This document shows, in pieces, positions 10,267-53,686 of a DNA stretch of 64,000 nucleotides. The notes below the pieces were generated by a model. It was not told the origin of the DNA and ran no database searches. It saw only the letters and a program-made list of their open reading frames with translations. The stretch is from Clostridia bacterium (GTDB taxonomy: Bacteria; Bacteroidota; Bacteroidia; Bacteroidales; 4484-276), in the NCBI GenBank assembly GCA_009928785.1, contig SABY01000002.1, positions 10,147 through 74,146 of the forward strand, read 5' to 3'. The position numbers were made by a program, and so were the translations under genes. Position 1 is the first letter of the stretch, and each line of letters opens with the position of its first letter.

Positions 10267-10268
10267 GG

Positions 10269-25950: not shown

Positions 25951-25969
25951 AATTTAGATTTTTATAATT

Positions 25970-27625: not shown

Positions 27626-27771
27626 TTTAGTTAATATTTATCTTTTTTGATTATCAGGACCAAATGGTTTCGCTTAAAACAATGCAAAAACAGCATAGGC
27701 AAAATTAACTTTATTTTAACAGTTGAAAAGATTAAGCTAAAAAAAATGATTTAACATGATTTTTCGTAACT

Positions 27772-27907
27772 AATCCGTCTGAGGTTCAAGTATAGCAATG
27801 GAAGCAAAAGCATTCAAAATGTTTTGACCATTTTTTAACAATTGTATCTGTTATTGAAAGTAGGATTGAAAACCTTTCTGCGCTTTCAAAAGGTTTGAAT
27901 TGCCCGG
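27772..27907. repeat. 136-bp direct repeat, copy B (pairs with 21803-21938)
   Basis: Same alignment as copy A. Lies 146 nt upstream of the operon start at 27625. Confidence 0.8.
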
Positions 27908-28169
27908 ATAATTTTTGTTTTAGAAATATATATCAGCTTTCCAATGTCGGGTATTGTTGATTACAATCAGTTTCCCAACTGCCGGGTCATTTTCGTTGAG
28001 CACTAACAATCAGTGAAATTTTATTTCATTTCAGGACTGATTAGTTTCCTCTATTTTATTAATAAAAAAACAGGGGATGACGCACATAATTGGTATATTA
28101 TCAGCCCAGGTTTCCCTGATGCCTATGCGATCCCCTGTATTTTGTTTTACAACGAAATGATGATGGCGG

Positions 28170-28646
28170 TTATGCCTCGTCGTCCTCGTCTTCTTCTTCC
28201 AAATCCATCATCATACCCCAACTGATGGCTGTAAGCGCACCTTCGTCGAAATAGAAGTCGATGAGAGCATCGTCAAACGAAACACGTTTTTCGTTTTCGT
28301 ACTCTTCGTCTTCCATCATCTCGGTGTCCATGTCCACGTAGTCGTGGTCGTTCATCAGCTTGATGATTTCGGCCTCGTTGAGGTCGAAAAGTTTTTTGCC
28401 GAAGAGGGTAATGCCACGATTTTCGGTCTCGAACTGCGTGAGTACGGGTTCTTCGTCCACTTCAAAGAAAAGCGACAGTTCCATGTCGTCGTAATGATAG
28501 ATCATGCTATCACCCATGTCTTCGTCTTTGATTTCTTCTTTGTCGTCAGGCTCGCCCAATTGGGCAACGATTTGTTTGGGTGTACTACCAAACTCAAGCG
28601 CACCAAATCCCTCCAGTGGCTTAATCTCGAATGACATTTCTTTCAT
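28170..28646 (-). CDS. highly acidic hypothetical protein (158 aa)
   Basis: Long ORF with coding-like composition, D/E-rich, with tail DLEEEDEDDEA. No recognised domain. Confidence 0.5.
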   Translation of the reverse strand: MKEMSFEIKPLEGFGALEFGSTPKQIVAQLGEPDDKEEIKDEDMGDSMIYHYDDMELSLFFEVDEEPVLTQFETENRGITLFGKKLFDLNEAEIIKLMNDHDYVDMDTEMMEDEEYENEKRVSFDDALIDFYFDEGALTAISWGMMMDLEEEDEDDEA

Positions 28647-28669
28647 AATTTGTAATAGTTTTTAATGAA

Positions 28670-29482
28670 TTATTTTAATGGTGAATTTGGTTCGTGCAAA
28701 AAATGCCTGAAAACCATTTTGTTGAGAAAATGCGGTACAAATTTATTAAGATAAACGATTGCCTTGCCCTGGGCTGTGAGGATAATATTGTTTTTGCGTT
28801 TGTAAATGGCGCGTGCAATTTTATGGGCAACTGTGGTGGCGCTCATGAGTTTGTTTTCGTTGAGTGGCGATTCGCCTTGTCGGGAGCCATCGGCTGCCAA
28901 GGCCACATTCCGGATGTTGGAACTGGTAAAACCCGGACAGGCTATGAGAACATGTACGTTGGTGTGTAGGTTTTCGATGCGTATTACTTCCATCAGTCCC
29001 TGTATGGCGAATTTGGAGGCAGAGTAACCGGTGCGTCCCGGCAGCCCTTTGTAACCCGCCACCGACGATACTGCTACCAGCGAACCCTGCGAAGCTTGCA
29101 GATGTGGCAGTGCGTATTTGGAACAATAGGCTGTTCCCCAAAAGTTGACATCCATAACTTGCTTTAGCACGTCGATGTCCACATCCTGAAAAAGTGCGCG
29201 CATAGAAATACCCGCATTGTTGATAATCACGTCGATTTTTCCATACTTATCAATGGCAGCCTGTATTAGATTTTGGCAGTCGGTTTCGCGGCTCACGTCG
29301 GTAGCCACAGCAAGCATGTGTTGGCCTTTTTGGTGCAGTGATGTTTGCATTTGCTGAAGTTTGGCTGTATTGCGTGCGGCGGCTACCACGCGTGCACCCT
29401 GACCGGCAAATTCGATCACCAGCGCCTCCCCTATTCCTGAAGAGGCTCCCGTTATCACAACAACTTGGTCTTTAAAATTCAT
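28670..29482 (-). CDS. SDR-family oxidoreductase
   Basis: VVVITGASSGIGEAL, NNAGI and YSASKFA motifs; 270 aa. Confidence 0.9.
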   Translation of the reverse strand: MNFKDQVVVITGASSGIGEALVIEFAGQGARVVAAARNTAKLQQMQTSLHQKGQHMLAVATDVSRETDCQNLIQAAIDKYGKIDVIINNAGISMRALFQDVDIDVLKQVMDVNFWGTAYCSKYALPHLQASQGSLVAVSSVAGYKGLPGRTGYSASKFAIQGLMEVIRIENLHTNVHVLIACPGFTSSNIRNVALAADGSRQGESPLNENKLMSATTVAHKIARAIYKRKNNIILTAQGKAIVYLNKFVPHFLNKMVFRHFLHEPNSPLK

Positions 29483-29582
29483 GATTGCGAAAACAACGTT
29501 ACAAACTGCATCTAATTTTACCTAGTGAAAAACTATTATCAAAAAACACTTTATTTGCCTTCTTCGTCATTTGCCCGGCAAG

Positions 29583-29936
29583 ACTACCAATTACTACCAA
29601 TTACCACCAATTACCCCCAATTATCATCAATTACTACCAATTACCACCAATTACCCCCAATTATCATCAATTACTACCAATTACTACCAATTACTACCAA
29701 TTACTAAATTACCACCAATTACCACCAATTACCACCAATTACCATCAATTACCATCAATTACAACAAATTACTACCAATTACAACAAATTACCACCAATT
29801 ACCATCAATTACCATCAATTACAACAAATTACCACCAATTACAACAAATTACCACCAATTACTACCAATTACCACCAATTACCACCAATTACTACCAATT
29901 ACTACCAATTACTACCAATTACAAACCAACAACCCC
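29583..29936. repeat. G-free tract of about 35 tandem 10-bp units (CCAATTAC[CT]A and variants)
   Basis: No G on the + strand across 354 nt. AATT recurs every 10 bp, with one 3-bp phase slip near 29705. Confidence 0.95.
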
Positions 29937-29940
29937 GTGT

Positions 29941-32862
29941 CTAATTCCCGCCCAGGGTTTTGTCGGCTTGCTGCTGTGCGTCAGCTTTTATTTTGTCGGC
30001 CTGGCGACGGGCAGCATTCATAATATTATCTGAATTTTTCTGAGCTTCTTTCACCAGATTATCGGCGGTATCGTCGGCTTGGGCCAGCAGGCTTTTGATG
30101 GTAGCTTTGGCGGCAACCTCGGCAAGCGGTCCGTTCTTTTTGGCTTCAGCCATAAGTTTGTCGGCTTGTTTGCGGGCCTCTTCTTTGGCCTTTTCGGCAC
30201 TTTGGCGCGCGGTAGCCATCAGTGCGTCGGCTTGTTTCTGCGCATCAGCAATAACTTTTTGCGCCTGCTTGTCGGCATCGTCAATAATCTTTTGTGCCTT
30301 GGCTCTGGCTTCAACTTTGCCCTCTTCCAGTTTCTGACGCGCTTCCTGTTCGAGTTTTTCTTTTTGTCGCTGCAATTCTTCGAATGCTTTATTTTTCAAA
30401 TCATCCACCATCGATTTTCCGGAGCCATCGCCCGGAAAAAGTCTTACGACCGGGTCAGTTAGTGTTCCGCCAATGTTGGCCTTTACTGTAACAGTTTCGC
30501 CCAGGCTAAAGTTGGTTCCCACCTTGTTGGCTTCCTTCACCAGGTTGTCGAGGATGTCGTTGGCTGCACCGCCAAATTTGGCGCGCGGAATTGTCAGAAT
30601 CATGTCGTAGCTTATGGTTTCATCCAACGCTGTCCAGCCGCCGACGCTGGCGTTGATGTCGGCATATTTGATATCAAAAGGTTCTACAAGCAATTTCCCG
30701 TCGATAAATTCAAATGAAATATCTACCGGTCCCATCAGCAATCGCTTTAGGTCGGGCATTTTGAGCAGGTCGGCTAATTTGTTAAAGGTGTTTACATTTT
30801 GGATGGTGATGGTGGTAGTTTGCAGGCTTCCTTTTCCGTTGAGGCTGCTGTAAATGGGCATCATTTCTTTGTCGAGCAAAGTAGTCATGTTGAAGTTGGT
30901 GGTAAATCTGCCCTCTGTTTTTTCGGCTATGGGAGTAAACTTTTCGATGGTGCCAAAGCTTTTGTAAGCCGACTGGATGTCGATGTCAGCAATGCGCATG
31001 TCGAGCTGAGCTTGTGGCCGTGCGGGGTTTTTCGCATCGTACTTTCCTGACAGGTTTGCCGTCCCCTCCAAAACGCCCATGTTGAGATTGTCGAGCGTGA
31101 TGGCTTGATTGGCCACTACCATCTTTCCGTTAACATTCGTCAGTTCCAAATTATCATAAATCACTTTATCGAAATGTGTAGTAAGCGTGAAGTCGATATT
31201 GGCGGGAACCTCGATAACGCCCATCGAAGCGGTATCTGCCGTGGGCGGAGATTGTGCAGGATTAGCAGATTCAGTGGCCGGAGCAGAAGTATCGGCGGGC
31301 ATCAGATCGGTGATGTTAAGATACGCCGACTTAAGGTCGAGCTGTCCCAGGAGCGTTCCGTCGGAAAGGACGTAGGGCAAAAAGTTCTCGATGCGTCCGG
31401 TAGCCGAAAAATCGTTGCGGCCAATATTCATAGCAAAATTGACCAAATCGAGATAGGCCGGCGAAAAGTTGAGCTGTGCGCTGGTGATATGCACCGGCTC
31501 TGTGAGATATTCGGTTGGATATTTAAAATCCTTCATCAGCAGCGAACCGATGAATTTAAAATCATCATAACGTTCATTTTCGATAGCCGACATCGCGCCC
31601 TCAAAAGAAACATCGGCTGTGACGGTTCCGCTAAGCGATTCGGTTTCCTGGAGCGGATACACCTCGCCAATGCGCGACAAATCGGCTTCGCCTTCGATGG
31701 CTCCTTTTAGGTGCAGGTCGCTCATTGGATTTTTAATAAAAAGATTAGCTGAAATTGCGTTGCCAGCCATCACCAGGTCGAAACGGGAAACATCGACGGT
31801 AAGATTGTCGAAGTCGCCGCCGGGGAAGTTGATGCGCGTGTCGATATTTACATCGCGCACGGCCTGCGGCAGGTCTGGATATTGGAAGAAGCCATCCTTC
31901 ACTTCCAGATTGACAGCAAAAGCAGGATAATCCGTTTCGGTGTACATTCCTTTCACGTTGCCGTTGATAGCCAGGGTACCGGAGGTTTTCAAGCCGTCGA
32001 AATTGTTGCTGTAGATTGCCGGCACCATCGAAAGGAAGTTTTTGAATTCCGATTTTTGGGATGCAAAGGTCAGCATCAGGTTCATATCGCCATTATCCTG
32101 CATTCCCACTGAGCCATCAAAGCCAATAAACAATTGATTGAGGCGCAATTGGTTTTCCTTTAAAGTGTAGATGCTGTTGGCCAAATCGGCATCGATTCTG
32201 GCATCCAACACCGCCTCCACATTGCGAAGATATTTTACACCATCATAAATTACAGTTACATGTTCGATGCTTGTGTAGGTATTTAATGAAGTGAAATCGA
32301 GCGTAAAATCGCCGGACATTTTAAAATCGACGCCATCAAGCAGGGCATAGGTGGTAAGGCTTTCGTCGTTGTAAATGATGCGCCCTTTATTGATGGTCAC
32401 ATTTTGCAATTCGATGACGAAAGCCGCAGAAGGTTCTTCACCAGCAGGTTCGGGTGCAGGTTCAGAAGGTAGCGCTATGTCGTAGTTGGCGATTCCCTCT
32501 TTAGTTACCAGCACATTTATTAATGGTTCGTTGATGTGTACTTTGCGCAACTTATAGTTTTCGCCTTTGATTACGCTCATCAGGTCGAGTGTAAGATCAA
32601 ATTGAGGAATCCACGCCAGCGTATCGCCCTCGAAAGGCGCTTTATTAGCCACCGAGAGTCCTTCGAGACGGAAGTTGAAGTTGGGAAAACTTCTGAATAA
32701 CGATAGGCTAAAGTCGGTGAAATCCACCTGGGCATTCACATTTTTATTAATCTCCACTTTTACTTTTTCCACGATCTGGTCGCGGAAAAAATAAGGAATG
32801 GCCACCATTGCAAGGATTATCACTAAAAAAATGATTCCGATAATTTTAAGAAATAGTTTCAT
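29941..32862 (-). CDS. AsmA-family protein with N-terminal membrane anchor and C-terminal K/A/Q/D-rich coiled-coil tail
   Basis: N-terminal TM MKLFLKIIGIIFLVIILAMVAIPYFF. The long beta-rich body is typical of AsmA-like proteins. The tail has repeated ADKQA/AQKQAD-type motifs. Confidence 0.7.
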   Translation of the reverse strand: MKLFLKIIGIIFLVIILAMVAIPYFFRDQIVEKVKVEINKNVNAQVDFTDFSLSLFRSFPNFNFRLEGLSVANKAPFEGDTLAWIPQFDLTLDLMSVIKGENYKLRKVHINEPLINVLVTKEGIANYDIALPSEPAPEPAGEEPSAAFVIELQNVTINKGRIIYNDESLTTYALLDGVDFKMSGDFTLDFTSLNTYTSIEHVTVIYDGVKYLRNVEAVLDARIDADLANSIYTLKENQLRLNQLFIGFDGSVGMQDNGDMNLMLTFASQKSEFKNFLSMVPAIYSNNFDGLKTSGTLAINGNVKGMYTETDYPAFAVNLEVKDGFFQYPDLPQAVRDVNIDTRINFPGGDFDNLTVDVSRFDLVMAGNAISANLFIKNPMSDLHLKGAIEGEADLSRIGEVYPLQETESLSGTVTADVSFEGAMSAIENERYDDFKFIGSLLMKDFKYPTEYLTEPVHITSAQLNFSPAYLDLVNFAMNIGRNDFSATGRIENFLPYVLSDGTLLGQLDLKSAYLNITDLMPADTSAPATESANPAQSPPTADTASMGVIEVPANIDFTLTTHFDKVIYDNLELTNVNGKMVVANQAITLDNLNMGVLEGTANLSGKYDAKNPARPQAQLDMRIADIDIQSAYKSFGTIEKFTPIAEKTEGRFTTNFNMTTLLDKEMMPIYSSLNGKGSLQTTTITIQNVNTFNKLADLLKMPDLKRLLMGPVDISFEFIDGKLLVEPFDIKYADINASVGGWTALDETISYDMILTIPRAKFGGAANDILDNLVKEANKVGTNFSLGETVTVKANIGGTLTDPVVRLFPGDGSGKSMVDDLKNKAFEELQRQKEKLEQEARQKLEEGKVEARAKAQKIIDDADKQAQKVIADAQKQADALMATARQSAEKAKEEARKQADKLMAEAKKNGPLAEVAAKATIKSLLAQADDTADNLVKEAQKNSDNIMNAARRQADKIKADAQQQADKTLGGN

Positions 32863-34213: not shown

Positions 34214-36781
34214 TTATGCGTCGTTAAGCAGTTTGAGTTTAGATTCGAGAACTTGCAGTTCTTCTTTGGCCTTATTGATTTTCTTTTCAAACTCATCTTT
34301 AAATAAGTTGGCCTTTTTGCTGTCGGCCAGGAAACCAATGTTGTTTTCCCACACGTGGATGTCGTCGCGCAGGGTGTTGATTTTTCCCTGTATGAAAATG
34401 CGCTCTCTGGAAAGTGTTCGCTGTGCATCGGGCGCCTCTTTTACTGACTCCATGCGGCTGCGGTAAGACGACAGCGAAATCTCGCGGTTGCTGATGTTGA
34501 GCTTGTCGAGTTGTTTGTTTACGATGTTTCTGAAAGCATTCTGCAACCGGTCTTTGTCTTTGAAAGGCACATGGCCAATGTCGGTCCACTGACGCTGGAA
34601 GTCTTTGAGTTTGTTGAGGTTTTCTGATTTATCTTCACCAAATTCGGTTTCCTCAAGCAGCTTTATAAGTTCCTCTTTGCGGCGCAGGTTTTCGCCTTCG
34701 TCCTCACGAATGCTGCCAAAATGTTTGGTTTTGGTGTTGAAAAAGGCGTCGCAGGCAGCGCGGAAACGTCTCCATATTTTGTCAGCGTTTTTGCGTGGTA
34801 CCGGGCCTATCTCTTTCCACTCTTTCTGCATGTCGATAAGCTCGCGGGTGGTTTGCTTCCAATCAGTGCTTTCGCTGAGCGCTTCGGCACGCACACAAAG
34901 ATCAAGTTTTTGATTGTAGTTGTTGATTTGCTGATCTTTGAGTTTTCCAAAATACTCTTTCTTTTCGCTGAAGAAGTTGTCCATGGCGGTGCGGAAGCGC
35001 TCCCATACTTCGTCGTTCTGCCGTTTGGCAGCGGGACCCATGGTTTTCCAAACTTTGAAAAGCTCATTGAATTGATGGGTTTTTTGCTGCCATTGTTTCA
35101 GCGATTCAACCTGACCTTCGAGTAACTGCTCGGCTTTTTCGCACAGCGCTACTTTTTGCTGGTAGTTGATGTCGTGCTGATCTTCCATCAGCTTATAATG
35201 ATCGCGCCGACGCTGATTGATTTTGTCGGTAGTAGATTTGAAACGTTCCCAGATTTCTTCGTTTTTGTCGGCTGGCACCGGCCCCACCTCTTTCCACTGT
35301 TCGTGGAGTCGTTGTAGTACTTTGAACGATCGGATGATGGACGATTCGAGCAAAAGCTCCTCGGCGCGTTCGCAAAGCTCAATCTTTTGTTCCAGGTTTT
35401 TCTTCAGGTCCAGGTCTTTTAGCTCTTTGTTGATCTTTACTTTATCAAAGAACTTTTCCACCAGGAAATGATAGTTCTGCCACAAATTGTTTACTTCGGC
35501 TTTGGGCACTATTCCCAGCGATTTCCATTCTTCCTGCAAGGCGCGGAAATCGTCGTAAGTCTTTTTGAGGGTTTCTTCAGAAGCGATAAGTTCTTTCAGC
35601 TCATCAAGTATCTGTTGCTTGCGCGCAAGGTTTTGATGTTTCTGTACCTCAAGCTGATCAAGATATACACTTCGTTTTTGTTTGTAAATGGCAAAAAGAC
35701 CATCAAATTTTTCCTGGAGCGCATCGTGCAACTGCTCAGGTTGTTTGTCGGCAACTTCCTCCCCACTCTCTTCACCCTCTTCATGTTCGGTGGTGGCAAG
35801 GCTTTGCTGAATTTGATCTTCTTTGTGGGCTTTTGTTTTTTTGATAAAAGCGACTTTTATCAAAGCTACCTTCGATTTTATCTCGTTCACGTCGTCGGCA
35901 GCCACCAGTTTTTCAAGTTGATCGATAAGCTCCTCGCGTGATAATTCTTCGTAGTTGGTAATCTCATCCTCGTCGTGATCCTCCTCTTCATCTTCTTCTT
36001 CGTCATGGGTTTTCTCCAGTACTTTGTCGGCAGTTTTTGCTGATGCAACTGCTGTTAGTTGCGCCCCTGGGTCAACCTCCGCTTCGGTTTCAGTTTCAGC
36101 AGCAACTTCCGGCTCTTTAGCAGCTTCGGCTTTGCTTTCGATCTCAGTTTCAGCAGCAACTTCCGGCTCTTTAGCAGCTTCGGTTTTGCTTTCTGGCTCT
36201 GTTTCAGCAGCAACTTCCGGCTCTTTGGCGGCTTCGGTTTTGCTTTCTGGCTCTGTTTCTGCAGCAACTTCCGGATCAGCAACAGCTTCGGGTTCCACGG
36301 GAGATTTTGTTTCGGCCTCAGCCAATGCTTCGATTGGTTTTTCTTCAACGATTTCCAAAACTGGTTCAGCGGCTGGTTCTTCCGTTTTCGCGGCGTCATC
36401 GGGAGTAAACTCAGTTGATGCATCCACCGTGGCAGGCTCAGTTTCGCCTTGCGGAGTAGCTGCCGTTTCGATAGCAGGCACTTCCCCGGCTACTCTTTTC
36501 TCTACTGCTGATGCAATCAATTCGACACCTCTTTCAGCTTGAACTTCAGGGGTAGCATCAATTTGCTTTTCATCGCTGATTCCGCTTTCAGCAGCCTCTT
36601 CATCCAGTGGTGGTTTTGCTTGCGCAACGGTGCTTTGGGTTTGTTCGTCGGTAGATTCCTGAACCTGATCTACTGTTTGATGGGTTTCTTGCTGTGGTTG
36701 GTCGGCCTGGAGCGTCTTCTCATCCTGCGTCCCGTTTTGGGATTCATCAGGAATTTGATTGGTTTGATCTTTTGTTTCCAT
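34214..36781 (-). CDS. DUF349 repeat protein with acidic repetitive N-terminus
   Basis: Multiple repeats of the W..F......F type (EEWKSLGIVPKAEVNNLWQNYHFLVEKFF, EVWERFRTAMDNFF, KIWRRFRAACDAFF). The N-terminal third is E/A/T/P-rich. Confidence 0.8.
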   Translation of the reverse strand: METKDQTNQIPDESQNGTQDEKTLQADQPQQETHQTVDQVQESTDEQTQSTVAQAKPPLDEEAAESGISDEKQIDATPEVQAERGVELIASAVEKRVAGEVPAIETAATPQGETEPATVDASTEFTPDDAAKTEEPAAEPVLEIVEEKPIEALAEAETKSPVEPEAVADPEVAAETEPESKTEAAKEPEVAAETEPESKTEAAKEPEVAAETEIESKAEAAKEPEVAAETETEAEVDPGAQLTAVASAKTADKVLEKTHDEEEDEEEDHDEDEITNYEELSREELIDQLEKLVAADDVNEIKSKVALIKVAFIKKTKAHKEDQIQQSLATTEHEEGEESGEEVADKQPEQLHDALQEKFDGLFAIYKQKRSVYLDQLEVQKHQNLARKQQILDELKELIASEETLKKTYDDFRALQEEWKSLGIVPKAEVNNLWQNYHFLVEKFFDKVKINKELKDLDLKKNLEQKIELCERAEELLLESSIIRSFKVLQRLHEQWKEVGPVPADKNEEIWERFKSTTDKINQRRRDHYKLMEDQHDINYQQKVALCEKAEQLLEGQVESLKQWQQKTHQFNELFKVWKTMGPAAKRQNDEVWERFRTAMDNFFSEKKEYFGKLKDQQINNYNQKLDLCVRAEALSESTDWKQTTRELIDMQKEWKEIGPVPRKNADKIWRRFRAACDAFFNTKTKHFGSIREDEGENLRRKEELIKLLEETEFGEDKSENLNKLKDFQRQWTDIGHVPFKDKDRLQNAFRNIVNKQLDKLNISNREISLSSYRSRMESVKEAPDAQRTLSRERIFIQGKINTLRDDIHVWENNIGFLADSKKANLFKDEFEKKINKAKEELQVLESKLKLLNDA
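36090..36275. repeat. in-frame 54-bp tandem repeats (about 3.4 copies) inside the DUF349 gene
   Basis: Encodes EVAAETEPESKTEAAKEP x3 plus a partial copy. The nucleotide units are nearly identical. Confidence 0.85.
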
Positions 36782-37143
36782 TAACTAAAGAAATTTTGTC
36801 GTACGTAACGTTTTGTTTTTACAGTATTCCGGTTTTTATACTGAAATAAAAACCTGATAATTAGATGTCTTTTTTTAAAAAAATGAGTGCAAAAATAGCA
36901 TTTATTCGATGGCAGAATCATTCGGCAGAATTTTAACTTTTACCGCCTGCCACCGGGCAACAAACTGCGCACATGAATCTACGATTTGTAGAGTTTTTTA
37001 TCCACAATTCATTCATAGTTTCAAGCGGTGGTTTCGATAGAAATCCAACGCCAATCGGCATTACCCATATTCAATATTTCCGCCCAACCAAGTTGGCACA
37101 TTTTTAAAGCATAAGTGATGTTGAAATAAATAAAATTTGAATT

Positions 37144-37356
37144 ATGCGTAAGGCAGGATTTGTAATGTTGTTTTTGGGGATTGTTGGTGTAGCCGTATTC
37201 GGTATTCAAACACTAAGCCATGCCGAAAATTTTTCTTTTTTGGGAATTATGATCGGGCGTGATGTGGCTGGGGATATGCCATTGATATTAAGCGCGCTGT
37301 TGCTGGTAGCAGGCATTTTAATATTGAAACTTATCAAACCATCCTTAAATAAATAA
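37144..37356 (+). CDS. small two-helix membrane protein (hypothetical)
   Basis: 70-aa ORF with two hydrophobic helices. Weak support only. Confidence 0.3.
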   Translation: MRKAGFVMLFLGIVGVAVFGIQTLSHAENFSFLGIMIGRDVAGDMPLILSALLLVAGILILKLIKPSLNK

Positions 37357-37381
37357 CCAAACCTTTTTAAAACCTAAAATT

Positions 37382-37633
37382 ATGGCAAAAAATCATGGAT
37401 CACAAATCAAAGACGACAAGCAATACGAAGCGCTCAGAGACGAGGGCTATAGTAAAGAAAAGTCGGCCAGAATAGCAAACACACCACGCAAAGAAGCCGG
37501 CCGCAAAGGTGGCGAACATGGCAAATACGAAGACTGGTCAAAACAGGAACTTTACGACAAAGCCAAAGATATTGGCATCAAAGGGCGCTCGGAGATGAGC
37601 AAAGATGAGCTAATAAAGGCGCTGCGGAAATAG
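37382..37633 (+). CDS. small basic protein with C-terminal Rho-N/SAP-like motif
   Basis: WSKQELYDKAKDIGIKGRSEMSKDELIKALRK resembles the Rho termination factor N-terminal (SAP-like) helix-extended-helix. Confidence 0.55.
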   Translation: MAKNHGSQIKDDKQYEALRDEGYSKEKSARIANTPRKEAGRKGGEHGKYEDWSKQELYDKAKDIGIKGRSEMSKDELIKALRK

Positions 37634-37670
37634 GTCATCTTCTTCATCGAGGTAATGTTATTTGAGCTGA

Positions 37671-37725
37671 AAAATGATGTGACTGAGTAGATTTCCATTT
37701 GCTCATTACATCATTTTTGTTTTTC
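37671..37725. terminator. bidirectional terminator hairpin
   Basis: AAAATGATGT...ACATCATTTT 10-bp stem extended by TGAG/CTCA, flanked by an A-run and a T-run. Lies between convergent genes. Confidence 0.65.
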
Positions 37726-37765
37726 GTAAAGTCTTTACAGTTGCCCTACTGTATGCGCAATGGTT

Positions 37766-38254
37766 TTAAAAAAAGAAGACATTACTTTGTTTGGATTTTT
37801 TACCTTTAACAACGGGCAAACCAAGTGTAATCCAACAATGCATGCCACCGCGGTAGTAGAGGATTTTGTCGGCGGGATAACCATTTTTGAGTAAAGTACG
37901 AATGGCTTTGGGCGACTGCGGACACTGTGGCCCGTTGCAGAAAAATATTGCCGGACGGGTTTCGTCGAGATGATCTTTTAGCTCAGCGATGCGATCGTGT
38001 GGCAGATTAACAGAGCCGGGGATGGTGGTCTCAACAAAGAAATCAGCGGTGCGGGCGTCGATAATCTGCCCGCCTAAATCCTGAAAGCGGCTCACAGTGA
38101 GTTCGTCAACGGTTTGCACCCCTTCAGCAACTTGCATAGGTTGTATTTCGCCCCAGGTGGTATCAACCTCCACTCGTGTCGGATTGTTGAGTACCGGCTT
38201 CGGGATCATTTGCACCTTGTTGCTTTTGGGAACGCGTTTTTCCTTGATATCCAT
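37766..38254 (-). CDS. rhodanese-domain protein
   Basis: IDARTADFF...IFFCNGPQCPQSPKA active-site loop and YRGGMHCW. Confidence 0.75.
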   Translation of the reverse strand: MDIKEKRVPKSNKVQMIPKPVLNNPTRVEVDTTWGEIQPMQVAEGVQTVDELTVSRFQDLGGQIIDARTADFFVETTIPGSVNLPHDRIAELKDHLDETRPAIFFCNGPQCPQSPKAIRTLLKNGYPADKILYYRGGMHCWITLGLPVVKGKKSKQSNVFFF

Positions 38255-46067: not shown

Positions 46068-46132
46068 GATGAAACCTGGGAGTACTGTTTTTCAGCGTGT
46101 TTTAAAAATTCATTCATAAATGCAAATGTATC

Positions 46133-46819
46133 CTATTCAAAACCTTTTAGCAGGTCAGGGCGGCGGGTTTTGGTTTTCTCGATGGCTTTCTCCATCGACC
46201 ACTGGTAGATGGCTTTTTCGTTTCCCGACAAAAGTATTTCCGGAACCTTCCAGCCGTTGTAATCCGCCGGGCGTGTGTAAACCGGCGGGCTAAGCAAATC
46301 ATCCTGAAAAGAATCGGAGAGCGCCGAAGTTTCGTCGCCCAGCACGCCGGGGATAAGCCGCACGATGCTGTCAGTGACTACGGCTGCTGCCAGCTCGCCA
46401 CCCGAAAGCACATAGTCGCCGATGGAAATTTCGAGGGTGATGTAATGCTCGCGCAGCCGCTCATCGATGCCTTTGTAATGTCCGCACAGCAAGATGATGT
46501 TTTGAAATGTAGAAAGCCGGTTGGCGGTGGGCTGATCGAAGAGCTGGCCGTCGGGCGTAAGAAAAATCACCTCGTCGTAATCCCGCTCGCCGCGGAGTTT
46601 ATCTATCAGGTCGGCGATGGGTTGAATGGCCATCACCATGCCAGCGCCGTGGCCATAAGCATAATCATCTACACGCCGGTGCTTGTCGCGGGAGTAGTCG
46701 CGGATGTTGTGGATAAGGATTTCGGCCAGCCCCTTGTTCTTTGCCCGCTTGATGATGGAGTGATCGAACGGGCCGGCAAAAATCTCCGGAAAGATGGTAA
46801 GTATGTCGATGCGCATCAC
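46133..46819 (-). CDS. trmD: tRNA (guanine37-N1)-methyltransferase
   Basis: [12 protein letters not shown]..., [14 protein letters not shown] and [18 protein letters not shown] motifs. Confidence 0.95.
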
Positions 46820-47132
46820 AGTTCAGTTTTGAAATGGTTAATGCGCTGAATTTCGTTTGATCTCCCGCTGCAGGATTTGATCTGTAACTTCATAAACCGG
46901 CTGCTGTGCGTTTTAAAATTTTGCATCATCCGGCAAAAGTAGCAAAAACGCGTCTTTGGAGCGGGAGGAGATTATTCTTGGAGGAGTGGTTTGGGGAGTA
47001 ATAGGTGGCAGAATGGTTAGTTGCCGTTTTTAAAGTACTTTCATTTAAGGTTTCAAGAAAACTAGAGTGGGCTACAACCCTTGATTTCACCACTGAACCG
47101 GCTAATATTTTATACATTGTTGCCAGTAGTGC

Positions 47133-48092
47133 TTATTCGAACATATTAAAATCTAACACTCTGTCTTCATAAATACTCGAGGCTGATTCTTGAAATATTT
47201 TATTAATACTTTTCTCTCGCGGTTTAATTTTTTTGGTGTAAAAACTTTCTGAACACGCCCACATTTCAGACCTACAAAGTAATAAATCATTCAGTTTTTT
47301 AAATAATGTATCTTCATCACAATCAAAAAAAGACTGAACAAAACCTCCGCAATTCGATTTATGTTCTTTCAGATAACCCACTATTAAAACATTCCCATCT
47401 TCAATTGGGAAAAATGAAATAAATATATCTGTTAAAATTTCGTAGTCTTTACCTGTTGACTGAATTTGATTCTTTCTTTCACTTGTAGTTTCATAGGTAA
47501 AATGTGAGGCAAGACAAATTTCACAATGTTTAGTATATTTAAATTTAAAGACGAAATTTTGAGTGTTACTATTTAAGTCTGATTCAATTTTTCCCTGATA
47601 ATATTCAATATCTTTAATCCCAACTCTTTGCTGCTTGTCCAAATCATCAATTAACTCAATGTCAATTTCTCCTGACAATATTCTAGATTCTTTTTGATAT
47701 TTATACCAATCTAATAATATCTCTTTCTTAACTTTTTCATTTAATAATGTTCGATACGCAAAAAGTAATTGGCTTTTATAATTTTCAAAATCTATTTCAA
47801 AATCTTCAATCGGAGAAAATATGTTTTTGTCATGTACTGTACAAAAACCTTTAAAAGAAAAGGCCTGGTTAATACCGACTCGTTTAAAATGGAATAAGTC
47901 GGTTTTAAAGAAATCAGATTCTGAGATTCGAATATGACCATTTTCTGCTATCTCATTCAGGATTCCATTTTTCTGTAATACATGCGAATTTATAGCTTGC
48001 TCATTACAATTTTTCACATTACATATTCTCTGTTTTGCAGAAGCTCTTCTAAATGTTTTATTAAGAACCTCTTGTATTTGCTTGCTTTTCAT
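47133..48092 (-). CDS. hypothetical Cys/His-rich protein (319 aa) downstream of the helicase-PLD gene
   Basis: AT-rich ORF co-directional with 48264-51443. Motifs CNVKNCNEQAINSHVL and GFCTVHD; no family recognised. An alternative upstream start is at 48182. Confidence 0.55.
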   Translation of the reverse strand: MKSKQIQEVLNKTFRRASAKQRICNVKNCNEQAINSHVLQKNGILNEIAENGHIRISESDFFKTDLFHFKRVGINQAFSFKGFCTVHDKNIFSPIEDFEIDFENYKSQLLFAYRTLLNEKVKKEILLDWYKYQKESRILSGEIDIELIDDLDKQQRVGIKDIEYYQGKIESDLNSNTQNFVFKFKYTKHCEICLASHFTYETTSERKNQIQSTGKDYEILTDIFISFFPIEDGNVLIVGYLKEHKSNCGGFVQSFFDCDEDTLFKKLNDLLLCRSEMWACSESFYTKKIKPREKSINKIFQESASSIYEDRVLDFNMFE

Positions 48093-48263
48093 TATTATAT
48101 TTTTGCCTATCATTACTACCAACGGATGTATCTGTATGTCCAATAAGGAATTCTCACCTAAATTACATACGAAGTATTGCACTTCAATTTATTGTTTTCC
48201 TGTCCTAAATAGCACGAACTCCCAACTTGCGAGTAAATGTTGTTATGCGCATACTCTTCTCTT

Positions 48264-51200
48264 CTATTTTGGCTTCCACCATGCATTTCTCCTATTAGAA
48301 TATTTATAACCTCGCATTTTAACCGAACTCCAAAGTAACTTTTCTGATTCCCACTGTCTGCCTGCCGTTTCATTGTCAAATAGGTCTAATGCAGTTTCGG
48401 TTGTTGGCGTATTTGTATTATTTATTCTGGCTGGCCGTCTTGGGGGATTTGGATTTCTTCTTGCCTGGCGTCTTTCCAATTCTTCCAAAGCCTTAATTCT
48501 AATGTCGGCTGTAAATCTGCAATTAGGATAACCTGAACATCCATAAAATGACCTGCCGTAATAATTCTTGGGGCGGATAAAGTTTATCTTGTCCAACTTT
48601 TTACATTCAGGGCAAAACTCACCATTTAGATTAGGATTGTAAAGTAATTCTTCTAAGTCAAACCTTTTAAACAATTCTTTCACTGTGTTTTCTCCCTCAA
48701 ATCGCTTCATGTATTCTTTCCTGCTGTTGTGACTCAAAATATTTAAGCTACCAGACCATTCGATTTTCCTGTCAATTATCGCAATTTTTTCGTGCATTCC
48801 ATCTCGAAACTTAACAGTGACACCCATTTCTTTCAATTTTGAAACCACTTCTGTTGCGCCTTTTAACTGAAGTCGGTCATTGGGAGAGAGGGTTATTACG
48901 GAAATTCGGATTCCCTTTGAAAGCAACTGTGAAAACTTCATTTGAAGTTTTCCTAACCTATCACTTGTGAGATAAGGAGAAAAAATTATCAATTCGGAAT
49001 TTGCTTTTGCCAAATCGTTATGGAACGCCACCCAAAAATCAATGTCGTCATAATTAGAACCGATGTTCTCTGGACTATCTTCAAGTGAATTGAGTTTGGC
49101 TGCCCAATAATCAAAATTTTCGTCACGCAAATCAGCAATGATTTCAGTTGAACTGATTTCCTTTCCTTTTTCAATGATGTGATCCAGCACATCAATGAAA
49201 AAAGTATTTCTTTCAAAAGATTTCTTGATGTATTTGTGGTTTGCAACAACAAACAATTTTGTTTTCGCTCTTGTCAAAGCAACATTGATAAGTAGTTTAG
49301 CACTTTCGGTGTTGTTGTACTCATTTATCATTGACCATTTCTTTGCTCCTTCTCCTTCAACACTATCAAAAATTATTGCTGTCTCTTCACCTCCCTGAAA
49401 ACTGTGAATAGTGTTTACTCTTATTATAGCTTTTTCGTTTTTTTTATTTTTATCAATCAGCCCTTTGTCCTCTGCAATTTTCAGAATAAGTCGTGCCTGA
49501 CTTCTGTATGGTGTAATTATTCCGATGGATTCGTTTTGTTCAAATGACTTTGATAATTTTTCAGCAAGTGAAACGCAAATCAAAGCACTAATAAGATTAA
49601 ATCTGCCGCGAGCCTCTAACTGACTGCACCAAGGATTATGAATTGAAGTGTCAATGAGACAAACTGCTGAATTACCTGCAACGCTGTCGTATTTAATTTT
49701 GCTTTTTACGGATTCATCATCTTCAAGTCGGTTTTCGTAAATTCTTTTGTTTACTATTTCCGAAATGTGTGGGTGCATTCTGTATTGTATGTAAAGTGGT
49801 TGCACTCTTTTTTCCGCTTGGCTTATTTCAGAAATATGCAGTTCATCAAATATGCTTCTGCCTAACCATTTCTTTGCAAGTTCATCATCAGAAATGCATA
49901 TAGGTGGAAGCTGTTTGAAGTCGCCTACAATTGTAATTCCCTTTTTGATTTTTGAAGCTGCCCAATAGAGCATAGGCATTGGAGCCATGCTCACCTCATC
50001 AACAAGCAAGATATCAAATTCAACATTCTCAATCTCCTTGGAAATGTAGGATTTAGTTAAAGTGGTTGCAACGAGTTTTGCATCTTTCAGAACCTGGATT
50101 TTTATTTCCTCAAGAGCCTTGTTGATTTCATTCAACCGGATTTGCAATTGCCTTACCTTATTGTCAAACTCATTTACTTCACTTTGAATTTCTGAAAGTG
50201 ATTTGCCAACTTTAGAAAGCTGTTTTGATAATTCAGCTTCGCTTTTCCTATACGTTGTTGCAAGTGTATGAGCATTTTGATTGGCTTGCGTTAATTTTTT
50301 CTCAAGGTTTTTAAGTTGATTTGTCCAGTCAGATAGATTTAAGTTAGCAATTTCAAGATATGCTTCAATCCTACAAGGAGCAAGTCCTAAAAGTATTCGT
50401 TTTAAAACTCCTGAATTCTGTGCCTTAATTAATTCTTTCTGCAGCTCTGATATTCGCTTTTGAGTTTGAGAAATGTCATATTTTAATGGGTTTGCTAGTA
50501 AAAAAAGAGCTAGTTGTTCAGCTCCTAAATTTGATAGCTGTGAATTTATCTTGCCCATTTCGAGATTCAGATTTATAATGTCGTCGTTAGTTTGTTTTGC
50601 TTCTTTGATATTTTCAAGCCTACTATTCAATTCCTGTTTTTCTTCTAAAAGATATTTTGATTTGAACTCGGCAATCTTGTCAATCATTACCAAAGTGCAA
50701 TCTTCCTGTTCATATTTATCACTCATTTCAGGTTTTGGAGTTCCTAACCTTAACAGTTGCCCTTCTTTGTAATAAGTTTTTCTCATTTGACCCGCTACTT
50801 TCAAAAGTGCTTGGTCAACAGCATTGTTTGAATGTGATAAGAGTAAAACCTTTCTGCCTAAGTTCAAATGACTTTCAATTGCTTTAGCAATCGTTTGAGT
50901 TTTTCCTGTTCCAGGTGGCCCCCAAATTATCGAAAGGAAATCGTTGATTGAAGATTCAACTGCTTTATGTTGATATGGATTCGGGTGGTCTTTTCCGTTG
51001 ATAGAATATGATGTGCTGAAATTCCCTCCATCAATTTGAGAACGGTCGTCTTGAAATAACTTGTTGCTGTTTTCAAATCGGCTTTGAGTGTTTAGGTTGT
51101 CCTCATATTTCTTTTTTAATCGTTCAAGCAAATACCAAGTGTTAGTTTTAATTTTTGCAATCGGAATTCTTTCTCCTAATTTCTGCTTGATAGAAATTTG

Positions 51201-51443
51201 AACCTGTAGTCCTGTTACGGAAATAATGTCGCAATCATATTCTTTGCCGTTTACTTCAATGTTGGCTGGCGTGTCGTCAAGGGCAACCAGAAAACTTTCA
51301 AGAGTAAATTGATAAATAAAAAGGTCAAGAGTGTGTCTAATCAGCTCTCCATTATAAACTGTTGCAATATTGCCGCCTATCCCATTTTGGAGGACCTCAA
51401 TTTCAATTGCTAAAGCATCTATGAATTCATTTACAATGGCCAT
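48264..51443 (-). CDS. SF1 (Upf1/DNA2-like) helicase fused to a PLD-family nuclease and a topoisomerase-type C4 zinc ribbon (Mokosh type II-like)
   Basis: Helicase motifs: Walker A IWGPPGTGKTQT; LLVDEVSM; GDFKQLPP; QYRMHPHI; TPYRSQ; HSFQGGE; NVALTRAK. HKD motif GMHEKIAIIDRKIEWSGSLNILSH. Zinc ribbon CPECKK...YGCSGYPNC. Confidence 0.85.
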   Translation of the reverse strand: MAIVNEFIDALAIEIEVLQNGIGGNIATVYNGELIRHTLDLFIYQFTLESFLVALDDTPANIEVNGKEYDCDIISVTGLQVQISIKQKLGERIPIAKIKTNTWYLLERLKKKYEDNLNTQSRFENSNKLFQDDRSQIDGGNFSTSYSINGKDHPNPYQHKAVESSINDFLSIIWGPPGTGKTQTIAKAIESHLNLGRKVLLLSHSNNAVDQALLKVAGQMRKTYYKEGQLLRLGTPKPEMSDKYEQEDCTLVMIDKIAEFKSKYLLEEKQELNSRLENIKEAKQTNDDIINLNLEMGKINSQLSNLGAEQLALFLLANPLKYDISQTQKRISELQKELIKAQNSGVLKRILLGLAPCRIEAYLEIANLNLSDWTNQLKNLEKKLTQANQNAHTLATTYRKSEAELSKQLSKVGKSLSEIQSEVNEFDNKVRQLQIRLNEINKALEEIKIQVLKDAKLVATTLTKSYISKEIENVEFDILLVDEVSMAPMPMLYWAASKIKKGITIVGDFKQLPPICISDDELAKKWLGRSIFDELHISEISQAEKRVQPLYIQYRMHPHISEIVNKRIYENRLEDDESVKSKIKYDSVAGNSAVCLIDTSIHNPWCSQLEARGRFNLISALICVSLAEKLSKSFEQNESIGIITPYRSQARLILKIAEDKGLIDKNKKNEKAIIRVNTIHSFQGGEETAIIFDSVEGEGAKKWSMINEYNNTESAKLLINVALTRAKTKLFVVANHKYIKKSFERNTFFIDVLDHIIEKGKEISSTEIIADLRDENFDYWAAKLNSLEDSPENIGSNYDDIDFWVAFHNDLAKANSELIIFSPYLTSDRLGKLQMKFSQLLSKGIRISVITLSPNDRLQLKGATEVVSKLKEMGVTVKFRDGMHEKIAIIDRKIEWSGSLNILSHNSRKEYMKRFEGENTVKELFKRFDLEELLYNPNLNGEFCPECKKLDKINFIRPKNYYGRSFYGCSGYPNCRFTADIRIKALEELERRQARRNPNPPRRPARINNTNTPTTETALDLFDNETAGRQWESEKLLWSSVKMRGYKYSNRRNAWWKPK

Positions 51444-51594
51444 GTTTTGTCAGTTATTTTGAACTTGTTCCGTACTTTAAAGAGTTGTAGCGTTTTACAA
51501 TACAAACCGGTTAGGTTTTCGAGCGCGTCTGTATCCACAGTTGGGAAAGTTGATTTCAAAATCTAAGTCCCGCAAACCACCGCATTGCACGTGC

Positions 51595-52074
51595 TTAATG
51601 TGTGTGTTGTGGTTTCGTGGTTTTGCTTTTCCTGGATTCGCCAACATTATAGAGAAACTCCGGGGCGAAATCTGCTCCATTTTCCCATTCAATCGTAAAT
51701 GGATTTAATTTGAAGTTTTTGAAATACTCTTCGTTTTTTAAAGGAACAAACATTCCGCCCCATAATTGATCTTGAAAGTCAATGACTTTAGTTTTTCCGT
51801 CATTAAATCGGAATTCGATTTTGTATCCTTCAATGTATTTTGCGCAGATTACTTTTATTGGATAGATTTCTTGTCTTACACTTTCTACTTCTTCTGTTAT
51901 AGTTTTTAGATCAAGGTCTTTTGTTTTAAATGTCTTTAGTAAACGAGACAATTTTGTATCAATAGCCTCTTTTTCCAATTCTTTGGTCAACATAATTTTT
52001 TGTTGCCGTGGAAGCTGCTTAACCACCGAAAGGATTTGCTCAAACGTAATATCTATTTGCAATGCTGTTTTCAT
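51595..52074 (-). CDS. antitoxin-like N-terminal region fused to a DUF2442-like domain
   Basis: N-terminus ITFEQILSVVKQLPRQQKIMLTKELEKE...ITEEVESVRQEIY resembles small addiction-module antidote-like proteins. The C-terminal half YKIEFRFNDGKTKVIDF...IEWENGADFAPEFLY is DUF2442-like. Confidence 0.55.
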   Translation of the reverse strand: MKTALQIDITFEQILSVVKQLPRQQKIMLTKELEKEAIDTKLSRLLKTFKTKDLDLKTITEEVESVRQEIYPIKVICAKYIEGYKIEFRFNDGKTKVIDFQDQLWGGMFVPLKNEEYFKNFKLNPFTIEWENGADFAPEFLYNVGESRKSKTTKPQHTH

Positions 52075-52312
52075 CTTTCAAGCTGTTTTTATTGTTTCGC
52101 AAATTTAAAAAATAATCATTGTAGTCCGCAATTTTATTCATGTGTTCACCTCGTTGGGAAACACACTTTTTTATAAGTCAAAAGTTGTTCATGGTATTTT
52201 TACGAATTGAAGGTCGGCTGTTTTTGACCAGACTACTTTTCGTTTAGCCTTTCTATATTTCGTTTATCCTTCCGGCAATTCTTACTTGATATCATATTTT
52301 AAAATACTACCA

Positions 52313-53686
52313 TCACTCCTTCACCCAAATAGTTTTAATATTAACAAACTCCTTGATGCCGTAATGCGAAAGCTCGCGGCCGTAGCCGGAGTTTTTGATG
52401 CCGCCAAAAGGCAGGCGGGGATCGGATTTTGTCATCCCGTTGATGAACACACCGCCCGACTCGATCTGCCGCGCCAACTGCTGCGCCTTTTCGATGTCGC
52501 GGCTCCAGAGGCTGCCGCCCAGTCCGTATTGGCTGTTGTTGGCAAGCAGGATGGCGTGTTCTTCGCTGTCGGCTTTTATCACCGCCATCACCGGGCCGAA
52601 AGTTTCTTCATCAAACAGCGGCATTCCGGCCGTAACGTCCGTAACTACAGCCGGAGCAAAATAAAATCCTTTTCGCTTTAGCGGATGTCCGCCCATGCGT
52701 AGTTTGGCGCCCATGCGCACCGATTTGTCTATTTGCTGCTGCAATGCGTCCATCAGGTCGGCGCGTGCCAGGGGGCCATAGTCGATGTGGTCAGTGGCGG
52801 GATCGCCGGTTTTCAGAGTTTCCATTTTGTGGATGGCGCGCGCCACAAAATCGTCGTAAACTTCTTTGGCCACGATAAAACGCTTGGCGGCAATGCAACT
52901 CTGGCCAGTGTTGATCATGCGGGCAGTTACGGCTGTTTCGACACATTTTTCCATATCGGCATCAGCCAAAACAATGAAGGCGTCGGAGCCGCCAAGTTCC
53001 AGCACGGTTTTTTTGAGCAGGCGTCCGCAGGTGGCGGCTACTTTGCTTCCGGCATGTTCGCTGCCGGTAAGTGTTGCAGCGCGGATGTTCCGGTGTTGTA
53101 ATATCTCCTCCACTTTGTCGGAACCCACCAGAAGCGTACGAAACAGATTTTCCGGGGCACCGGCCTGCTCAAAAACTGACTCTATGGCCAGTGCGCAGCC
53201 GCTTACGTTGGAAGCGTGTTTGAGCACCCCCGCATTGCCAGCCATGAGCGCCGGAGCGGCAAAACGGAATACCTGCCAAAACGGAAAATTCCAGGGCATT
53301 ACGGCCAGCACCACCCCTATCGGCTCAAAAGAAACAAAGCTCCGTGAAGCATCGCTGGCGATGGTTTCGTCTGCAAGAATCTTTGCTGCATTTTCGGCGT
53401 AATAGCGGCACACCCACGCGCACTTTTCTATCTCGGAGCGCGCCTCGCTTAGCGGCTTGCCCATTTCGTTGGTCATCAGCAGCGCCAGCTCATCCCGGCG
53501 TTTCTCTAAAACATCGGCCACGCGCAGCATCAACTCCGAGCGGTGATCTATGGTGGTGGTTTTCCAATGATTCCAAGCCTCGTAAACCTGATCGACGATC
53601 CGGTTGCATTGTTCGATAGTGTAGGGTTCGTATTCGAGAATGAGCGCTTCGGTGGAAGGATTGATACTTTTCATAATGGTTTTCAA
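52313..53686 (-). CDS. NAD(P)-dependent aldehyde dehydrogenase (succinate-semialdehyde dehydrogenase-like)
   Basis: VLELGGSDAFIV and NTGQSCIAAKRF (catalytic Cys) motifs; 457 aa. Confidence 0.9.
   Translation of the reverse strand: MKTIMKSINPSTEALILEYEPYTIEQCNRIVDQVYEAWNHWKTTTIDHRSELMLRVADVLEKRRDELALLMTNEMGKPLSEARSEIEKCAWVCRYYAENAAKILADETIASDASRSFVSFEPIGVVLAVMPWNFPFWQVFRFAAPALMAGNAGVLKHASNVSGCALAIESVFEQAGAPENLFRTLLVGSDKVEEILQHRNIRAATLTGSEHAGSKVAATCGRLLKKTVLELGGSDAFIVLADADMEKCVETAVTARMINTGQSCIAAKRFIVAKEVYDDFVARAIHKMETLKTGDPATDHIDYGPLARADLMDALQQQIDKSVRMGAKLRMGGHPLKRKGFYFAPAVVTDVTAGMPLFDEETFGPVMAVIKADSEEHAILLANNSQYGLGGSLWSRDIEKAQQLARQIESGGVFINGMTKSDPRLPFGGIKNSGYGRELSHYGIKEFVNIKTIWVKE

Follow-up and report, generated by a model that had tools for sequence, protein, structure and literature searches.

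A candidate stand-alone defence nuclease that joins an Upf1-like helicase, a single-HKD PLD domain and a zinc ribbon on an acquired low-GC island

Motifs, domains and predicted structure

We analysed a stretch of 64,000 nucleotides (nt) from contig SABY01000002.1 (hereafter the window), in which an open reading frame (ORF) on the minus strand, 48264..51443, encodes a protein of 1059 amino acids (aa) with an ATG start, according to the ORF list and its translation. The protein combines a superfamily 1 (SF1) helicase, a phospholipase D (PLD) nuclease domain and a zinc ribbon. Its gene lies in a 5.4-kb island (46900..52300) with a GC content of 34.7%, between trmD (46133-46819, 54% GC) and an aldehyde dehydrogenase gene (52313-53686, 54% GC). 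A first-pass annotation, made from the sequence alone, had described helicase, HKD and zinc-ribbon motifs and a basic, aromatic tail, and all of them were found in the translation. The Walker A motif, IWGPPGTGKTQT, occupied aa 173-184 with the GPPGTGKT core at 175-182; it was encoded at nt 50892-50927, slightly displaced from the position of about 50898-50930 quoted before. Motif II (LLVDEVSM, aa 478-485), motif III (GDFKQLPP, aa 507-514), QYRMHPHI (aa 553-560), TPYRSQ (aa 644-649), HSFQGGE (aa 680-686) and NVALTRAK (aa 720-727) followed. The HKD stretch, GMHEKIAIIDRKIEWSGSLNILSH, was located at aa 882-905 (nt 48729-48800), where HEKIAIID and then GSLN span residues 884-901; the catalytic PLD residues are H884, K886 and D891, and GSLN is 898-901. 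A motif scan found H-x-K-x4-D only once in the whole protein, as the first-pass annotation had claimed. The zinc-ribbon cysteines are C944, C947, C969 and C975, and the C-terminal tail is rich in arginine, lysine, tryptophan and tyrosine.

Pfam searches gave matches well outside what chance would produce, with AAA_12 at aa 528-736 (E 3.3e-35) and AAA_11 at aa 155-518 (E 8.4e-31), with AAA_19 also matched in RecA1, and PLDc_2 at aa 810-929 (E 4.3e-10, over the gathering score). No Ser/Thr kinase domain was found in the protein by Pfam. Zn_ribbon_Top1 (PF01396) matched aa 942-980 below threshold (E 1.8e-4; 21.7 bits compared to a gathering score of 32), whereas the relatives scored 37 to 58 bits (58.2 in L001; best E 6.8e-16), over the cut-off, and PF01396 was annotated on most homologues in precomputed records. 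Because of the four-cysteine arrangement and these higher-scoring relatives, we counted the segment as a Top1-type C4 zinc ribbon. In sequence searches of the Protein Data Bank (PDB), the helicase part matched NAM7/Upf1, Dna2, IGHMBP2 and Sen1, and the closest match of the PLD region was Zucchini/PLD6 (4ggj, E 9.4e-4). Matches to DrmC, GajB, Hhe, ProA, PLuB and RecD were far under the family cut-offs and were rejected as generic P-loop or PLD similarity.

An AlphaFold2 model of the full protein was built on an alignment of 88 homologues, with a mean predicted local distance difference test score (pLDDT) of 85.4. From the N-terminus, all on the minus strand, the polypeptide begins with an N-domain (aa 1-135, 51039..51443) delimited by predicted secondary structure, followed by the N-terminal half of RecA1 (1A) with Walker A (aa 155-262, 50658..50981; AAA_11 and AAA_19). 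A coiled-coil insert of about 190 residues is predicted at the 1C position of RecA1 (aa 263-454, 50082..50657). The C-terminal half of RecA1 then carries motifs II and III (aa 455-520, 49884..50081; translation) and leads into RecA2 (2A), which is defined by AAA_12, PDB sequence matches and Foldseek (aa 521-745, 49209..49883). A predicted helical linker that is less conserved in the alignment (aa 746-800, 49044..49208) connects the motor to the single-HKD PLD domain (aa 801-935, 48639..49043; PLDc_2). The four-cysteine Top1-type zinc ribbon (aa 942-980, 48504..48620) is followed by a basic, proline-rich linker (aa 981-1016, 48396..48503), predicted to be disordered from its composition and a pLDDT below 50 at 997-1017, and by an aromatic and basic β-rich tail, WES..WSS..GYKYS..AWWK, seen in the model and the alignment (aa 1017-1059, 48267..48395).

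The K/E/L/Q-rich insert noted earlier corresponds to the coiled coil, for which three long helices were predicted (263-343, 356-412 and 416-454; pLDDT ~90). Its apex carries the motif LKRxxLGLxPxxI at aa 346-359 (nt 50376-50408 encode aa 346-356), in which K348, L354, P356 and I359 were conserved in at least 90% of the alignment. LmuB, JetC and SMC-like models also matched the coiled coil, which we set aside as compositional coiled-coil likeness, not homology. The C-terminal tail was predicted to form short strands (pLDDT ~84), and a Pfam search with aa 1017-1059 gave no match. The coiled-coil apex motif and the C-terminal module WES..WSS..GYxYSKKKNAWWK are two conserved elements without a known counterpart.

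Foldseek searches of the full model against the PDB returned only Upf1-like SF1B helicases (SETX, IGHMBP2, Upf1, Dna2, Sen1, Aquarius and ZNFX1), with E of 1e-28 to 1e-21 overall and of 1e-28 to 1e-25 for the first four. The target-normalised template modelling (TM) score reached 0.75, to the Upf1 core, at sequence identities of 13-18%. The alignments ran over ~790-820 columns against targets of ~600 residues, which is consistent with a start at the N-domain and with the coiled coil being skipped. SF1 motifs I-VI, the AAA_11/AAA_12 signature and the structural match of RecA1 and RecA2, which are the hallmarks of an Upf1-like SF1B helicase, were thus all present.

The N-terminal region had been called an unknown domain in the first-pass annotation. 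Its sequence found no match in Pfam, PDB profiles or PHROGs, but the predicted topology and weak Foldseek similarity indicate that it is most likely an ordinary stalk and 1B β-barrel of Upf1-like helicases. In the model, a helix (2-22) is followed by a six-stranded β unit (25-100) and two helices (102-130), and the domain modelled alone had a pLDDT of 87.1. A stalk and a 1B barrel precede RecA1 in the structures of Upf1 and IGHMBP2, in the order helix, barrel, helices. We read the N-domain as a 1B/stalk module because it shows this same order before RecA1 and because the coiled coil lies at 1C. Its top Foldseek matches were β-barrels of F1/V1 ATPases (E ~1e-3), with Upf1 (9.5e-3 over 128 columns), IGHMBP2 (1.7e-2) and Dna2 next.

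Family distribution and the acquired island

A homologue search yielded 567 proteins at E<=1e-10 among 8000 candidates scored, and features were counted over the 113 listed homologues of at least 900 aa. The N-domain, the coiled coil and the PLD domain with HKD and GSxN were present in 113/113, GPPGTGKT in 112, and at least one zinc ribbon in 109 by a family hidden Markov model (HMM); the C-terminal tail was found in 67, the more closely related half. Walker A, motif II and HKD plus GSxN were invariant across 88-113 homologues at identities of 36-82%. In the alignments, D482, E483, G507, D508, F509, Q511 and L512 were also invariant and the zinc-ribbon cysteine columns were conserved. By their source names, the homologues came from Bacteroidota, Chlorobi/Ignavibacteria, Calditrichota, KSB1, Deinococcota (Trueperaceae), Thorarchaeota and other archaea, a patchy distribution across bacteria and archaea.

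We also searched an N-domain profile against 1.84 billion cluster representatives (50% identity) and obtained 1017 matches at E<=1e-3 and 455 at E<=1e-10. In the 51 long proteins among the best 150 matches, the same helicase always followed the N-domain; a PLD domain was present in 42/51 and two zinc ribbons in 12, and a minority lacked the coiled coil, the PLD domain or both. The zinc ribbon and the N-domain had been proposed as possible marks of a distinct variant. Their occurrence in hundreds of homologues shows that they are family traits and not oddities of one locus. In five variants of 860-915 aa (P0233, P0247, P0284, P0298 and P0303), the N-domain was followed by a helicase without the coiled coil and by a zinc ribbon at the end, with about 200 aa before the ribbon that hold an undetected or very divergent domain; P0233 gave a weak PLDc_2 match (8.6e-4). 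These variants and the two-ribbon proteins hint at swapping of effector or accessory domains.

The island is horizontally acquired. Its GC content is 34.7%, compared to 54% for the flanking genes. A search of its edges found neither a tRNA nor an integrase nor any convincing direct or inverted repeat, and its promoter and terminator counts were not above those of shuffled sequence. An exact look-up of the window TrmD for empty sites recorded nothing. In a second metagenomic contig (L084), the helicase-PLD protein differed at 3 residues. The window at 46120-52074, trmD included, was 98.3% identical to L084 5269-11225, compared to 91.6% and 92.5% in the flanks. At this site L084 had 3.9 kb more, with two Gp49/HTH_3 toxin-antitoxin pairs and a ParE-like toxin gene, and this additional cargo marks the site next to trmD as a variable hotspot. 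These data suggest recent exchange at the hotspot.

The contexts of six other helicase-PLD homologues were compared, and their neighbour sets were all different. One locus had a transposase neighbour, another AIPR, an integrase fragment, HsdM and a 2626-aa helicase, a third an N6_N4 methylase, MutH, NucS/EVE and SLFN_AlbA_2, and a fourth ThiF/E2/Multi_ubiq, an HTH/ImmA-like gene and Mrr_N. In the remaining two, the neighbours were tRNA-synthetase and two-component genes in one case, and metabolic genes with a PIN/PhdYeFM pair nearby in the other. A low-GC island with ever-changing neighbours is what one expects of a defence-type gene that stands alone and moves horizontally. We consider that the protein is probably a stand-alone, single-gene defence nuclease whose target is the single-stranded nucleic acid of invaders. 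Neither outcome that the first-pass annotation had named as speaking against its prediction was found: PLD and SF1 helicase domains were detected, and the PLD-bearing family was patchy, island-borne and variable in context instead of grouping with a housekeeping helicase present in all relatives.

The same contexts also bear on a role for the mobile element itself, such as plasmid or integrative and conjugative element (ICE) processing, exclusion of competitors or addiction, in place of host anti-phage defence. Plasmids and ICEs commonly carry Nuc-type PLD nucleases and Top1-type zinc ribbons, a transposase and an integrase fragment are neighbours at some loci, and toxin-antitoxin modules share the hotspot. 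However, the island contains no conjugation, replication or integrase genes and is not bounded by repeats or a tRNA, and the only substantial match in a phage-family search was a helicase-only PHROG without an assigned function. We consider such a role very unlikely.

Relation to Mokosh and to PLD-less helicases

Millman et al. described Mokosh as the combination of a COG1112 RNA-helicase domain with a PLD nuclease, and type II as a single gene with an N-terminal helicase and a C-terminal PLD, in agreement with what the first-pass annotation had stated of the system. The protein studied here has this type II order, with AAA_11 (155-518) and AAA_12 (528-736) followed by PLDc_2 (810-929). Mutants of the ATP-binding site and of the PLD active site lose Mokosh defence, and RNA targeting was proposed (Millman et al.). 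The Walker A lysine and the HKD residues, both needed in validated Mokosh, are intact here. The union of an Upf1-like helicase with a PLD nuclease in a single defence protein is already known.

We compared the protein with the MkoC profile of PADLOC (PDLC03924). The match had 109.5 bits (E 3.4e-32) and aligned query residues 554-913 with model positions 777-1109 of 1136, which is ~30% of the model and only its C-terminal part. In contrast, the genuine MkoC used as reference, a 1172-aa protein of Vibrio coralliilyticus plasmid p337 (WP_064487259) that was reached via the E. coli YjhR remnant, scored 1413.7 bits over model positions 5-1135. Three relatives (P0066, P0117 and L001) scored 100-138 bits, likewise over part of the model. 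The best PADLOC match of the protein was MkoA instead, with 204 bits (E 1.1e-60) over the helicase core; this match is generic because a PLD-less Bacillus-type helicase scored 181 bits with the same model. In piecewise BLAST comparisons, the helicase core with the coiled coil removed gave 45 bits with MkoC, as opposed to 191 bits at 31% identity with the PLD-less Bacillus-type helicase; the PLD domain gave 35 bits with the MkoC PLD, and the N-domain showed no similarity to MkoC. The earlier designation Mokosh-II-like therefore holds for the layout and not for membership of the MkoC family, and by sequence comparison the protein is Mokosh-II-like in architecture only.

The zinc ribbon was not found in the Vibrio p337 MkoC, and PF01396 was present on 0/120 of the best YjhR-like matches; the YjhR homologue search returned only fragments of up to 588 aa, so it is informative on PF01396 and not on architecture. 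With an unrelated N-terminal region and no ribbon in genuine MkoC, the suggestion of a distinct variant was upheld. A helicase-PLD-zinc-ribbon defence protein was nowhere described in our literature search. As judged from sequence, the family is widespread, unnamed and separate from the MkoC sequence family.

YjhR has been presented as the E. coli Mokosh II remnant (Cury et al.), and it aligned with the protein at 26% identity over 318 aa across the RecA2-PLD junction. The YjhR and MkoC alignments are colinear over RecA2, linker and PLD, which allows for an ancient shared fusion as well as for convergence. This colinearity, the E of the MkoC profile and the same order of helicase and PLD in a single polypeptide would fit a bona fide Mokosh type II protein that automated tools can call. 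We consider this quite unlikely in view of the short MkoC match, the closer relationship of the core to PLD-less helicases, the unmatched N-domain, the absence of the ribbon from the YjhR-like matches, and a top PADLOC match to MkoA that a PLD-less helicase nearly equals. The E. coli yjhR gene was truncated or interrupted by an internal stop, IS1 or ISEc23 in every record inspected (L081-L083), and it lies beside topAI-yjhQ, a toxin-antitoxin pair, and beside part of a phosphorothioation-dependent restriction gene.

Like Mokosh type II, the protein unites in one polypeptide an SF1 helicase of the Upf1/COG1112 type and, C-terminal to it, a single-HKD PLD domain. It is likewise encoded by a stand-alone gene in variable, island-like contexts and has a big insertion between Walker A and motif II. 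It differs in that the identity is 23-26% and restricted to the C-terminal part, and in that the N-terminal region is unrelated (a barrel and stalk of ~135 aa here, ~270 aa before Walker A in MkoC). MkoC also lacks the zinc ribbon and the C-terminal tail, and the helicase core here is nearer to PLD-less helicases that share the N-domain. Mokosh type I likewise pairs an Upf1-like helicase with a PLD; its MkoA helicase-kinase and MkoB PLD are separate proteins, whereas here the PLD is fused, there is no kinase, and no MkoB-like gene is adjacent. The motor fold, the probable stalk and 1B barrel and the insertion at 1C are shared with Upf1, IGHMBP2, SETX/Sen1 and Dna2. The pairing of helicase and PLD also resembles MOV10L1 and Zucchini/PLD6 of the PIWI-interacting RNA (piRNA) pathway, and Zucchini/PLD6 is the nearest relative of the PLD domain among solved structures. 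Cury et al. noted the helicase-plus-PLD logic of Mokosh beside this eukaryotic pairing. Unlike the eukaryotic proteins, the present one is prokaryotic and island-borne, its helicase and PLD are covalently fused, a ribbon and a tail are added, and the 1C element is enlarged to a coiled coil of ~190 aa.

The PLD-less relatives are proteins of 660-748 aa annotated as 'AAA domain-containing protein', from Bacillus, Peribacillus, Guptibacillus and Cellulosilyticum (L010-L014) and from Aliifodinibius of the Balneolaceae (L024). They were found in a contig search, among whose listed matches the relatives were distant (<=35% identity over extended matches) and the close family did not appear. They share the N-domain and helicase core at 31-33% identity and lack the coiled-coil insert, the PLD and the zinc ribbon; the N-domain match to them had E 2e-5, and in the piecewise BLAST the N-domain matched Bacillus-type and Bacillota relatives. 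This PLD-less lineage is possibly a non-defence ancestor.

A housekeeping helicase-nuclease of DNA repair, replication or RNA decay, Dna2- or Upf1-like in role, would fit several of these observations. The nearest solved structures are Upf1, IGHMBP2, SETX and Dna2, ordinary metabolic or regulatory genes surround the PLD-less relatives in Bacillus, Peribacillus and Balneolaceae, and two PLD-bearing homologues (P0024 and P0066) likewise have housekeeping or metabolic genes around them. Such a role is nevertheless highly improbable for the PLD-bearing protein, which is encoded on a 35% GC island amid 54% GC DNA, at a site with different cargo in a closely related strain, and which belongs to a patchily distributed family with defence or mobile-element genes in most of its contexts.

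Proposed mode of action and the neighbouring genes

A stand-alone defence nuclease, the reading we favour, could work as follows, although we hold each mechanistic detail with much lower confidence than the overall reading. The Upf1-like SF1B motor, consisting of RecA1 and RecA2 with an N-terminal stalk and 1B-like barrel and a long 1C coiled coil, would bind single-stranded nucleic acid and translocate with ATP. Upf1-like helicases of the SF1B group typically move 5'->3'. The substrate may be single-stranded DNA (ssDNA) replication or recombination intermediates of the invader, or RNA. Bacterial topoisomerase I binds single strands with its C-terminal zinc ribbons, and the Top1-type ribbon and the basic, aromatic tail may add single-strand binding here. 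The Zucchini/Nuc-type PLD domain would then cut the strand. Zucchini/PLD6, a nuclease with one HKD motif, acts as a dimer. Since one HKD motif makes half an active site, cleavage should require two protomers or PLD domains to come together on the substrate. The coiled coil possibly helps to bring the two half-sites together, and the need for paired PLD domains could keep the enzyme quiet on host DNA. Of the substrates given to purified EcMokosh II, only ssDNA was cleaved; the enzyme also nicks plasmid and gives protection against an ssDNA phage, which fits a single-strand target; in that study, the legends describe activity only at 1 μM, as opposed to activity at all concentrations tested in the main text.

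Several points weigh against a defence nuclease of this kind. EcMokosh II is reported to be monomeric in solution, in contrast to the proposed dimer-dependent activation of the PLD domain. Because the MkoC match is partial and low, transfer of function from Mokosh is an analogy only. The PLD-less relatives in Bacillus and its kin adjoin housekeeping-looking genes (PepF, a luciferase-like monooxygenase and GntR), so the helicase lineage as such need not be defensive, and in two of the six other contexts of the PLD-bearing family (P0024 and P0066) no defence or mobile-element gene adjoins. PADLOC 2.0, NCBIfam and Pfam contain no model dedicated to the helicase-PLD-zinc-ribbon family or to its N-domain, and a literature search found no experiment on the family. 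The assignment of the N-domain is drawn from its topology and from weak Foldseek matches (E ~1e-2).

The family might also be convergent with Mokosh II and not descended from it, an independent single-protein immune nuclease. We regard this as possible but rather unlikely. If so, the coiled coil with its apex motif, the zinc ribbon and the tail could constitute a new sensing and licensing device. For example, the substrate might induce dimerisation via the coiled coil, so that the two halves of the PLD site would meet only where the invader offers a long single strand of nucleic acid. In that case, the housekeeping ancestor of the defence enzyme would be represented by its PLD-less cousins in Firmicutes.

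Among the defence systems described in recent years, Mokosh is one of the commoner, with a mechanism still little understood. A defence role for the present protein would add a second large helicase-then-PLD lineage, with 455 N-domain representatives at E<=1e-10 and members in many bacterial phyla and in archaea. Since the PADLOC MkoC model matches it partially and with a low score, defence finders may well miss the family. The same class of effector and motor with different accessory modules (ribbon, coiled coil and barrel) amounts to a natural experiment, and a comparison with Mokosh and the PLD-less relatives could reveal how the PLD is licensed and which single-stranded substrate is sensed. 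The family also brings prokaryotic helicase-PLD fusions structurally nearer to the eukaryotic Upf1/MOV10L1-Zucchini pairing. The family should thus be useful for defence annotation and for a comparative view of the Mokosh mechanism, albeit with little surprise to specialists.

Two genes on the same strand flank the helicase-PLD gene, and the first-pass annotation had regarded them as linked to it. The 159-aa gene (51595-52074, minus strand) encodes a VapB15-like antitoxin domain (aa 6-71) and DUF2442 (aa 78-143). In L084, the ParE-like toxin gene (4961-5748 region) overlaps the start of the 159-aa gene by 4 nt; the toxin gene is missing from the window. This overlap identifies the 159-aa gene as the antitoxin of a separate toxin-antitoxin pair, orphaned here. 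The second neighbour is a 349-aa ORF (47133-48182, minus strand) with a probable start at Met31 (nt 48092), which gives 319 aa. Met31 is the most likely start because 319 aa is the length of the homologues and of the gene in L084. The 319-aa protein has 50 homologues, its Cys/His clusters CNVKNC..SH and FCTVHD look conserved, and it found no match in Pfam, PADLOC, NCBIfam or PHROGs. At four other loci, its family was located beside a prokaryotic Argonaute (pAgo, Piwi), PIN_4, a UvrD helicase with a zinc ribbon, or DUF2971, with no helicase-PLD gene beside it in any of the four. The 319-aa gene thus moves independently of the helicase-PLD gene and may be an independent defence-island gene.

A three-gene system composed of the DUF2442/VapB15-like gene, the helicase-PLD gene and the 349-aa gene, as the first-pass annotation had raised, would be consistent with their common strand and low-GC island and with the trio being kept in L084. 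However, L084 carries the same island at 98.3% identity, so its trio does not count as independent evidence. The linkage proved to be physical adjacency: neither neighbour is present at the six other helicase-PLD loci, the 319-aa family occurs elsewhere without the helicase-PLD gene, and the 159-aa gene pairs with the ParE-like toxin. The GC contents of the genes also differ (0.285 for the 349-aa ORF, 0.36 for the helicase-PLD gene and 0.34 for the 159-aa gene), and neither neighbour carries a PLD. A conserved operon was ruled out by the differing contexts at the homologue loci, and we regard a three-gene system as extremely improbable. The 159-aa and 319-aa genes are unrelated passengers, not partners, and in practice it is not advisable to clone all three together as a single 'system'. 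Elsewhere in the window, the GC content is also lowered at ~9000-13000, ~22000-30000 and ~36000-38000 (0.40-0.44 compared to ~0.48-0.52 around), and these stretches may be acquired islands as well.

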